Shown here one piece after another: positions 2,320-7,973 of a stretch of DNA of 7,973 bases. The translations under genes and the position numbers were made by a program. The notes below the pieces were generated by a model. That model saw only the letters and a program-made list of their open reading frames with translations. It had not been told where the DNA came from and ran no database searches. Within the stretch, counting starts at the first letter, position 1. Each line of letters begins with the position of its first letter. Source of the stretch: a virus (taxonomy: Duplodnaviria > Heunggongvirae > Uroviricota > Caudoviricetes); the IMG/VR virus record IMGVR_UViG_2645727743_000016, positions 1-7,973 of that record; one strand, written 5' to 3'.

Positions 2320-2805
2320 TTAGTTTTGCTGTTCTATTTTAAGCTTGATAGTTTCATACAAAACAATAGTTGCGCTTGTTTTACATAATTCCCGGCTGTC
2401 ATACGCGCGAGACCAATAACACAACCAGTTCTCGAGATCTTCTCGAGTATAGGTTTTGCAGGCCAGTCCCTCTGCCATTTCCACGATTTCATCGCCTGGT
2501 GCTGTTAACTCATAGCCATTCAACAACAAGAAGACGTAACCAGCCATCATAGCTGTTCGTTTGTTCGCATTAGCAAACGGATGATTCTGAATCAGACTTT
2601 CAATCAATACCGATGCCAGTACAAACATGTCATTAGTCTGTTCATACCATCGAACCATGCTGGGACGGGCCTGAGAAGAACTTAAGTTATCTGGACTCAG
2701 AACACCAACGGGCTCATCTGGCGTCTGTAATTCAATTAGGGAATGATTGATTTCAACAAGATCATCAACCGTAAGGTAATGCACTCCTTCAACAATCTCA
2801 GCCAT
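2320..2805 (-). CDS. doc: Fic/Doc family toxin (death-on-curing-like)
   Basis: Translation contains HPFANANKRTAMMAGYVFLLLNGYEL, matching the Fic/Doc motif HxFx(D/N)(A/G)NKR. ATG at 2803-2805 (the ORF track starts 3 codons earlier at a TTG, 2814). Small partner gene ends 18 nt upstream. Confidence 0.82.
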   Translation of the reverse strand: MAEIVEGVHYLTVDDLVEINHSLIELQTPDEPVGVLSPDNLSSSQARPSMVRWYEQTNDMFVLASVLIESLIQNHPFANANKRTAMMAGYVFLLLNGYELTAPGDEIVEMAEGLACKTYTREDLENWLCYWSRAYDSRELCKTSATIVLYETIKLKIEQQN

Positions 2806-2823
2806 AGAGTACAATACCCATCA

Positions 2824-3003
2824 TTACACTTTTGAAAGTTCTTCCATGGCTTTCTCATAACGAGAAAAACCGAAATCAAAAGCATTTTTCACTTGTTCAC
2901 GATGTGCGCAGTTTTCATCAATCACTGGGCGAGGGACTGCCACAACGCTTTTATCGCGAGGCGGAATACTCAACCGCGTGTGTTTTTTGAGTGGGCAGCT
3001 CAT
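2824..3003 (-). CDS. Putative antitoxin partner of the Fic/Doc toxin (59 aa)
   Basis: ATG at 3001-3003 with AAGGA about 8 nt upstream; the ORF track's longer 75-aa form starts at TTG 3051. Small gene immediately upstream of the toxin is the canonical type II arrangement. Sequence family not recognised. Confidence 0.5.
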   Translation of the reverse strand: MSCPLKKHTRLSIPPRDKSVVAVPRPVIDENCAHREQVKNAFDFGFSRYEKAMEELSKV

Positions 3004-3119
3004 ACTAATGAGTCCTTTTGTTTTCCGATTATTGGCAAAGCCATGCACCAAATTTGATACAAAATAGATCTGTTTGAGATCCTTAGGATAGTCTCATGGT
3101 AGCTAAAATTACAACCTCA

Positions 3120-3150
3120 TAATGCGACGAAAAACCCGCCGAAGCGGGTT
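3120..3150 (-). terminator. Rho-independent terminator downstream of hok (hok mRNA 3' hairpin)
   Basis: CCCGC-cgaa-GCGGG hairpin at 3135-3148 with AA/TT extension, followed on the minus strand by TTTTTCG. Lies about 70 nt after the hok stop. The 21-bp core (3130-3150) is identical to 2283-2303. Confidence 0.6.
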
Positions 3151-3218
3151 AAGTGCGGGTGCGTTGAGGATGCCTGACACATCAGAGGCGGCGAGGGATT
3201 TCTCCCCCGCCGGGTCTC

Positions 3219-3374
3219 TTACTCCTCAGGTTCGTAAGCTGTGAAGACAGCGACCTCCGTCTGGCCGGTTCGGATTCGTACCTCGCAGAGGTCTTTCCTC
3301 GTTACCAGTGCCGTCACTATGACGGTTAAACAGATGACGATAAGGGCGATTAACATCGCCTTTTGCTGCTTCAT
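3219..3374 (-). CDS. hokD: Hok/Gef family type I toxin (51 aa), HokD/RelF-like
   Basis: Translation MKQQKAMLIALIVICLTVIVTALVTRKDLCEVRIRTGQTEVAVFTAYEPEE matches HokD/RelF as I recall it (not searched). ATG at 3372-3374 with AAGGAG about 10 nt upstream. An in-frame upstream ATG at 3429-3431 would give a 70-codon form. Confidence 0.88.
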   Translation of the reverse strand: MKQQKAMLIALIVICLTVIVTALVTRKDLCEVRIRTGQTEVAVFTAYEPEE

Positions 3375-3633
3375 AGCCTGCTTCTCCTTGCCTTTCGGCA
3401 CGTAAGAGGCTAACCTACATGTGTTCAGCATGGATTGAGCCTCAGATTAATGTTAAGCGTCTTGCAGGACGCGTAATGTTAACTGGGGCTTTTCTCTATC
3501 TGCCTTTTGGTGTTCATGCCTGAGACAGATAGCCTCAAGCACCCACAGTCATTCTACTTAACTAAGATTTCCCTGCAAACCGTTTTTGTCCGGCACAGTA
3601 AATATCCAACTAAACCAATAGCGTTCGCTGTAT

Positions 3634-3813
3634 TTACCGCCAGTATTCAATGCACGTGACCGCCATGAACACCCCTAAAAAAAGGGCATTTATATGTCCA
3701 AACATTAATATCAAAACATCAATTTTTTCCATATACCTTGCTGTGAAGATGATGGGCATACATGATGCGAACAACCAGAACGCAACAAACAAAAACTGCA
3801 ATGCGTTTTTCAT
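3634..3813 (-). CDS. Possible small hydrophobic (membrane) protein, 59 aa, in an AT-rich island
   Basis: ATG at 3811-3813 with GGGGGA about 5 nt upstream; the ORF track's 72-aa form starts at GTG 3852. Translation is strongly hydrophobic (LQFLFVAFWLFASCMPIIF...ALFLGVFMAVTCI). AT-rich sequence gives long ORFs by chance on both strands, so the call is weak. Confidence 0.3.
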   Translation of the reverse strand: MKNALQFLFVAFWLFASCMPIIFTARYMEKIDVLILMFGHINALFLGVFMAVTCIEYWR

Positions 3814-4024
3814 TATTCCCCCTACAATCAATGTGCAATTACATTTAAACACACCTCAATTTGGCCGGACATATAAATATCTAAACCAGAAAAAATCACT
3901 TACATAGCGTTACAAACTCTTTAGTCTAAATATTCATCGTAAAACATTCCCCATACTTATCAGCCCACTCTACGCCAGGTAGCTCATTGCCTTATCTGGG
4001 AATCTGTAATCAGGTTTCCGTTTT

Positions 4025-7431: not shown

Positions 7432-7873
7432 AATTCCATCCAGCTTTTTGTTGGTATTGCTGTCGATACGCAAGCTTGAAAGCAATTGCTTTTTCTATAA
7501 GTTCGTCAGTTTCACGATCTACAACGGCAGGATCTGCAAAAAGCAGTCCGGATTCCACCACATCGCCATATTCTTTATTTAACCCGGCGATCATGTACGT
7601 AATACTTTTTCCATCACTGATCTCACGATACAACCTGAAATCACTAATCCGGATAGCCTCCATAATTGCAGGCACTAGCGCTGTGAACTTTTCACGCTTA
7701 TCCCTGGTGTCGATAGCCTTCCAGCGTTCGAATATCTTCACTCGATTAACGCTAAGCGCTCGCTGATCAACCGCGCCACCTTCATATGTGACACGCTGAA
7801 CATCGATGTTCGGGCGCTCTTTCAAAGCCCAGAATGCTTCAGTGATTAATATCGTCGCCTGCTCCTGTGTCAT
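7412..7873 (-). CDS. Hypothetical phage protein (153 aa) immediately upstream of the replication initiator
   Basis: ATG at 7871-7873. Its 3' end overlaps the preferred O-like start by 20 nt, out of frame. No recognisable motif; occupies the position of cII/YdaT-type regulators in lambdoid prophages, which is synteny inference only. Confidence 0.6.
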   Translation of the reverse strand: MTQEQATILITEAFWALKERPNIDVQRVTYEGGAVDQRALSVNRVKIFERWKAIDTRDKREKFTALVPAIMEAIRISDFRLYREISDGKSITYMIAGLNKEYGDVVESGLLFADPAVVDRETDELIEKAIAFKLAYRQQYQQKAGWNYESSFC

Positions 7874-7973
7874 TCCTGGTTGGATTTGCCCCTATATTTC
7901 CAGACATCTGTTATCACTTAACCCATTACAAGCCCGCTGCCGCAGATATTCCCGTGGCGAGCGATAACCCAGC

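Follow-up and report, generated by a model that had tools for sequence, protein, structure and literature searches.

The window (the whole 7,973-nt stretch of viral DNA analysed here) comes from a lambdoid prophage of E. coli and covers its replication-to-nin part. Its genes are all encoded on the minus strand: a replication initiator-like gene and a DnaC-like loader are followed by DUF977, DUF4406 and an Ea22-like gene, the hok cassette, a Doc/Fic toxin preceded by a small ORF, and then DUF968 and RusA. The features of the hok cassette are as follows, with mRNA positions counted from the predicted 5′ end of the hok transcript:

3551..3579, minus strand: hok/mok promoter, with −35 TTTGCA at 3579-3574, a 17-nt spacer and −10 TAGAAT at 3556-3551
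3131..3544, minus strand: predicted full-length hok mRNA, 414 nt, from GGGUGCUUGAGG to the terminator U-tract
3533..3544, minus strand: tac element (mRNA nt 1-12), predicted to pair with fbi in the full-length RNA and with ucb when the RNA is 3′-truncated
3483..3491, minus strand: ucb, the mok anti-Shine-Dalgarno, AAGCCCCAG (mRNA nt 54-62)
3219..3431, minus strand: mok reading frame, 70 codons, sharing the frame and stop of hok, with Shine-Dalgarno (SD) sequence GAGG at 3440-3443
3406..3411, minus strand: dcb, AGCCUC, complementary to the mok SD region GAGGCU
3219..3374, minus strand: hok toxin gene, 51 aa, ATG at 3374, SD GGAG at 3384-3387
3157..3169, minus strand: fbi element, CCUCAACGCACCC (mRNA nt 376-388), complementary to tac
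3131..3150, minus strand: intrinsic terminator of the hok mRNA, which in the fold forms ACCCGC-UUCG-GCGGGU followed by U5
3388..3416, plus strand: candidate Sok promoter, with −35 TTGCCT at 3388-3393, 17 nt and −10 TAACCT at 3411-3416
3423..3499, plus strand: predicted Sok antisense RNA, ~71-77 nt, with ends taken from annotated sokW (phage 933W) and sokC (E. coli K-12)

The initial annotation described a 51-aa Hok within a 70-codon ORF that begins at an ATG at 3429-3431, and this description holds. Residues 20-70 of the 70-aa product of the ORF at 3219..3431 (minus strand) are the 51-aa Hok (MKQQKAMLIALIVICLTVIVTALVTRKDLCEVRIRTGQTEVAVFTAYEPEE), a small (~50 aa) membrane toxin of family PF01848. 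The Pfam HOK_GEF model matches it with E=3e-23 (81.6 bits, cutoff 22), and the NCBIfam Hok subfamily model gives 48.5 bits, below its cutoff of 73. The protein is identical to RefSeq WP_000813254.1, which is named HokD (HokD/RelF). The mok ATG at 3431 has a GAGG SD 8 nt upstream and the hok ATG 57 nt downstream, an overlapping leader frame with a ribosome binding site of its own. Since a 19-codon in-frame extension would stay free of stops by chance with a probability of (61/64)^19, or ~0.4, its significance rests on homology. That homology bears out the earlier suggestion that the upstream ATG occupies the mok position: the mok starts annotated in 933W (mokW) and K-12 (mokC) align with window position 3431, and the hok starts annotated in 933W and K-12 hokC align with 3374. 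Among 35 aligned hok loci, the mok ATG column is kept in 34 and the GAGG SD in all 35.

Within the hok coding sequence, the UAC codon for Tyr47 lies in a small hairpin, CAG-CUUACGAAC-CUG (window 3227-3241, minus strand), whose loop holds the UACG motif associated with A-to-I editing by TadA (Tyr to Cys). The hairpin stem covaries across homologues, with A-U changed to G-C in 13 and C-G to U-A in 3. Such editing has been reported for hokB and, according to a recent preprint, also for hokC, hokD and hokE (bioRxiv 10.1101/2025.08.07.668861).

The hok/mok promoter is the only sigma-70-like site that a generic scan found in 3050-3950. The mRNA 5′ end at 3544 lies 7 nt downstream of this promoter, both hexamers of which are conserved in 933W. 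The same scan listed neither the hok terminator nor the Sok promoter; because it missed the Sok promoter and an evident terminator, it was not used as negative evidence. The only Rfam family detected in the window is RF01794 (sok), which matches 3544..3369 on the minus strand over the full model length (1-157) with 118.9 bits against a gathering score of 59 (E=2.3e-27), placing the sequence within this curated RNA family. As the match lies on the hok-sense strand, it identifies the structured hok leader, not the Sok transcript itself.

The predicted 414-nt hok RNA has a minimum free energy (MFE) of −173 kcal/mol (z=−7.35 vs shuffles). Folding the leader in search of long-range pairing of the tac/fbi type, as had been proposed, gave a positive answer: in the full-length MFE structure a 12-bp helix joins tac (nt 1-12) to fbi (nt 376-388), a 5′-3′ closing pairing that is also found by pair counts in 35 sequences. 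In the same fold, nt 55-62 of ucb pair with nt 100-107, a segment that contains the mok SD GAGG. When the last 41 nt are removed and the RNA is folded without constraints, nt 1-8 of tac pair instead with nt 54-60 of ucb, and the mok SD is released. A tac/ucb conformational switch of this kind, with ucb acting as an anti-SD, has been described for the R1 hok mRNA (PMC9841398), and the in silico folds of the window RNA reproduce both its sequestered and its truncated state. Another segment, AGCCUC at mRNA nt 134-139, was considered as ucb and rejected. Forcing it to pair with tac costs ~7 kcal/mol relative to the MFE, here and in the R1 control, and the R1 nomenclature assigns ucb to the anti-SD at nt 54-62 and AGCCUC to dcb (PMC9841398).

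On the plus strand, the initial annotation had proposed a sok-type antisense RNA and a candidate promoter formed by TTGCCT and TAACCT. Both proposals agree with the annotated relatives. The 5′ ends of sokW and sokC map to 3423 and their 3′ ends to ~3493-3499; the two hexamers stand at 3388-3393 and 3411-3416 with a 17-nt spacer, and 3423 sits 7 nt downstream of TAACCT, so the proposed promoter is in the right place. The promoter is homologous in position to TTGCGC/TATCCT of the R1 type and identical in sequence to that of 933W, and its −35 TTG is kept in 34 of the 35 sequences. It matches the consensus weakly (7/12), which explains its absence from the results of the generic scan. Over 3388-3499, the span of the Sok promoter and Sok RNA, the window differs from 933W at one base, 3466, in the hairpin loop. 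The plus strand at 3423-3499 folds with −32.7 kcal/mol (z=−6.0) into a long hairpin between a single-stranded 5′ tail and a U-rich tail. The complementarity of predicted Sok covers ucb, the mok SD and the mok AUG but not the hok start region; any control of hok must thus be indirect, via mok, as in R1. At the level of sequence, the arrangement is that of a cis-antisense RNA transcribed from a promoter within the mok region and covering the mok start rather than the hok start.

Conservation was assessed on loci encoding Hok relatives (80 viral and 53 genomic), from which 35 distinct full-length hok mRNAs were aligned. These represent Escherichia, Shigella, Kluyvera, Pseudocitrobacter, Erwinia, Kalamiella and an R1-type plasmid. 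The absence of a conserved leader structure, together with that of an antisense transcript, had been named beforehand as the finding that would speak for a decayed remnant. When the pairs of the window MFE structure were counted on the alignment, 87.7% of cells were paired, compared with 36-45% when partners were slid by 1-3 columns. Compensatory changes, altering both sides of a pair, occurred at 43 pairs vs 24.2±2.7 in shuffles, and none of 500 shuffles reached 43. Seven of the compensatory pairs fall in the Sok/target hairpin. RNAalifold on the 35 sequences returned the tac/ucb hairpin, which is the other known conformer, together with a CUCUUAC/GUAAGAG helix, and did not return tac/fbi, which was for this reason examined by counting pairs explicitly: in the 35 sequences the tac/fbi helix shows 95.2% pairing and includes one compensatory pair (G-C to A-U in four Kluyvera). 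Pairing reaches 97.5% for tac/ucb and 89.7% for SDmok/dcb, and dcb itself is invariant in 35/35 sequences. As the tac/ucb and SDmok/dcb helices are almost invariant, covariation says little about the ucb switch.

The additional helix returned by RNAalifold is a 7-bp long-range pairing on the minus strand between CUCUUAC (~3402-3408, just 3′ of dcb) and GUAAGAG (3216-3222, spanning the hok stop). It joins alignment columns 158-164 with 348-354, was called invariant, is kept in 33-35 of the 35 sequences and is absent from the window MFE structure. Some of the gathered loci look decayed. The one in E. coli ECMA0423 (L089) has a mutated tac (GACTGCATGTGG) and a broken small upstream ORF, and in the one from Kluyvera ascorbata (L114) ATA replaces the mok ATG.

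Alignment with known hok/sok loci, which had been suggested as a check, showed that the mok, hok and Sok starts coincide with those of 933W and hokC. Among the closest known relatives are loci in Stx phages. The window hok mRNA shares 93-94% DNA identity with hokW/mokW/sokW of 933W and of Sakai prophage Sp5, and among phage records the window locus matches 933W, VT2-Sakai (Sp5) and many further Stx phages at 93% identity. The 933W record (AF125520) annotates mokW (213 nt, ending at the hokW stop), hokW and the antisense sokW, and shares with the window the 70-codon in-frame mok, the Sok promoter and the lambdoid prophage setting. The Hok protein of the window differs from HokW of 933W in a few C-terminal residues (window ...VFTAYEPEE, the HokD sequence). 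The 933W locus also differs in the 3′ terminator and in both flanks, with homology to the window only from ~3587 to ~3147, and its cassette lies near the end of the phage map and, unlike that of the window, not beside a Doc toxin. The Sp5 hokW-sokW locus is a functional type I toxin-antitoxin (TA) system that promotes lysis after induction and in which HokW is toxic (PMC8621323). Expressed from its own promoter, sokW is seen on Northern blots and protects against HokW, depending in part on RNase III and Hfq; after mitomycin C, sokW falls and HokW rises, and phage release is halved without the Sp5 locus (PMC8621323).

More distant relatives have the same architecture. In both K-12 hokC (gef)/mokC/sokC and R1 hok/mok/sok (parB), an in-frame mok ATG lies 57 nt before hok, the Sok 5′ end falls at the alignment column of the window, and tac, ucb, dcb and fbi are all present. 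DNA identity to the window mRNA is ~76% for hokC and less for R1, and the window type differs from hokC and R1 by an extra ~15-20 nt that lengthen the Sok/target hairpin. According to a preprint, chromosomal hok loci tested earlier did not mediate post-segregational killing (bioRxiv 10.1101/2025.08.07.668861), which makes the physiological role of the window locus uncertain. The type represented by the window is widespread in E. coli. Several E. coli chromosomes, in which the annotation is limited to ‘hokD’, match the stretch 3100-3650 (551 nt) with 100% identity. Of 5426 complete E. coli genomes, 4938 have sequence homologous to it, and 2316 of these cover at least 80% of 3100-3650.

The Hok protein of K-12 hokD (relF), in the Qin prophage, is identical to that of the window, and the DNA is 98.8% identical over window 3130-3388, a segment that comprises the hok SD, the coding sequence, fbi and the terminator. 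Homology begins only at 3388; upstream of this point K-12 has the end of relE, which abuts the hok SD. K-12 hokD accordingly lacks the hok promoter, tac, ucb, the mok start, dcb, the Sok −10 and the Sok RNA. In the window, ORF and domain searches upstream of hok gave no match to RelB or RelE, so the initial annotation was right that hok is wired differently here than in relBEF and that no RelE/RelB-like ORF precedes it. Its implication that the window arrangement is the unusual one was not upheld. Of the 80 best-matching viral loci encoding an identical Hok, 77 start at mRNA nt 1 with a full leader and 3 show the K-12-type truncation, which makes the window arrangement the common and complete one and the K-12 relBEF arrangement a disrupted derivative. 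This fits the statement that IS elements, point mutation or rearrangement have inactivated the hok loci of K-12 (Pedersen and Gerdes, 1999, cited in PMC7232551), and the accessible literature mentions only a genetic rearrangement among the causes.

A possible origin of the K-12 arrangement is seen in E. coli NZ_CM135829.1 (L143), where an intact hok leader is parted from the hokD coding sequence by a 3274-bp insert. Upstream of the insert, this genome has the AT-rich segment of the window and the intact hok leader up to GGAGAAGCAGGCTAT; at the left junction, the hok leader is followed by TGTTAACACC. The cargo comprises an ISNCY/IS1202-type transposase (NF033594, 445 bits), ydfW, flxA, ydfV, relB and relE. 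An exact copy of the 15-bp GGAGAAGCAGGCTAT stands on either side of the insert (L143 1431-1445 and 4720-4734), duplicating the sequence that in the window begins with the hok SD and reaches the AT of the ATG (3373-3387, minus strand). Its ends read 5′-TGTTAAC...GTTGACA-3′ and match as inverted repeats at 21 of 28 positions (P about 2e-7); as an internal control, none of 215,296 internal 28-mer pairs of the insert reaches 20 matches. MG1655 keeps only the right junction. The window may thus represent the uninterrupted target site of the transposition that made K-12 relB-relE-hokD (relBEF), a proposal for which we regard the balance of probability as even. If it is true, relBE reached Qin as transposon cargo, and the linkage of relBE with hokD would have arisen by chance, when the element inserted into a hok/sok locus, rather than through the evolution of a three-gene operon.

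The flanks of the cassette vary. The AT-rich island noted earlier upstream of hok is present, with a GC content of 0.34-0.385 at 3600-3999 vs 0.47-0.56 over hok. This segment is common to only ~17 of roughly 133 related loci and was not found in Qin of MG1655. Given that few loci carry the AT-rich flank and that 933W is homologous only over ~3587 to ~3147, the cassette behaves as a mosaic module of ~460 bp. An unannotated and strongly hydrophobic ORF of 59 aa (3634-3813, minus strand; 72 aa from a GTG at 3852) with a good SD, GGGGGA, lies in this segment, just before the hok promoter. It has no Pfam or NCBIfam match, is open in 20 of 21 related copies and shows very few substitutions among copies. 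Immediately downstream of hok is a second TA-like pair (window 2320-3051, minus strand), in which a Doc/Fic death-on-curing toxin (TIGR01550, 127.9 bits) is preceded by a 75-aa ORF without a family match. The 75-aa product is presumed to be the antitoxin; a 60-aa version in RefSeq is labeled hypothetical. At the other end of the window, the last 93 bases (7881-7973) are 100% identical to an IS2 end (IS2E of MG1655) and 7654-7880 are 98% identical to the ydfX region of Qin, so that in the source genome an IS2 seems to break up the left part of the prophage.

Two other readings of the locus deserve consideration, one concerning the product of mok and the other the state of the whole cassette. 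Because mok is in frame with hok and shares its stop, translation of mok must yield a 70-aa protein that contains Hok, and this holds for the window and for most of the 35 loci, including the R1-type plasmid, hokC and 933W (frame 0 relative to hok in 20-21/35). The Mok-Hok fusion could on these grounds be an N-terminally extended isoform of the toxin and not merely a coupling device. However, mok is in frame +1 in 9 of the 35 aligned loci and in frame +2 in another 5-6, where it is a 19-codon ORF whose ATGA overlaps the hok ATG and whose peptides are unrelated. The mok start is kept and its peptide is not, as translational coupling predicts, in agreement with mutagenesis of R1, which shows that translation need reach no further than the hok start (PMC9841398). 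An isoform role is thus extremely unlikely, and by its sequence the 70-codon in-frame extension is the canonical mok frame, as in plasmid R1, K-12 hokC and phage 933W.

It could also be argued that the locus is a relic that has lost a working antisense RNA and leader, and that transcription of hok depends entirely on read-through from the early-right operon of the phage. Decay is visible in some relatives (the tac of L089, the mok ATG of L114), K-12 hokD lacks the whole leader, and the cassette is co-oriented with the upstream phage genes, which makes read-through possible. In the window, however, every element is intact and matches the functional Sp5/933W type, the z-scores of −7.35 for the mRNA and −6.0 for Sok indicate structure in both RNAs, and the cassette has a promoter and a terminator of its own. 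Decay is on this evidence very improbable. The region ~3131-3590 is instead, with high confidence, an intact hok/mok/sok type I TA cassette of the hokW/hokD type, forming a self-contained module of the nin region.

From the sequence elements, the conserved structure and the near identity to annotated and experimentally studied loci, we infer transcription, processing, toxicity and a physiological role in the strain that carries the window. A mechanism can be drawn from the R1 paradigm (PMC9841398) together with the sequence and structure of the window. The hok promoter would produce a 414-nt mRNA in which the 5′ tac pairs with the 3′ fbi and ucb sequesters the mok SD, and this closed full-length RNA would be neither translated nor bound by Sok. 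Slow trimming from the 3′ end would remove fbi, allowing tac to pair with ucb and the mok start region to open. Ribosomes that initiate on mok (ATG 3431) would run into the hok start (3374) and so permit synthesis of Hok. As long as it is made, the unstable Sok RNA (plus strand, 3423 to ~3493) would pair with the mok start region, and the duplex would be degraded. Sok levels may drop when the element is lost or when the prophage is induced, the latter as shown for Sp5; Hok would then enter the inner membrane, and the cell would be killed or lysed. Processing of the hok mRNA at its 3′ end, cleavage of the duplex by RNase III and toxicity of Hok have been documented for the Sp5 homologue (PMC8621323) and for R1 (PMC9841398). 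By inference, the window cassette works like that of Sp5; its sequence fits both stabilization of the prophage and an aid to lysis and does not decide between them.

This type of locus is already known, being annotated in the 933W record (AF125520) and characterized experimentally in Sp5 in 2021. As a discovery it therefore matters little, as the locus is real but ordinary. It is of some practical use to annotators: in RefSeq the locus carries the single label ‘hokD’, with no entry for mok, Sok or the structured leader, and automated annotation thereby hides the fact that the window copy, unlike K-12 hokD, has every element for an active TA system. Such a TA module could influence prophage retention or the timing of lysis.
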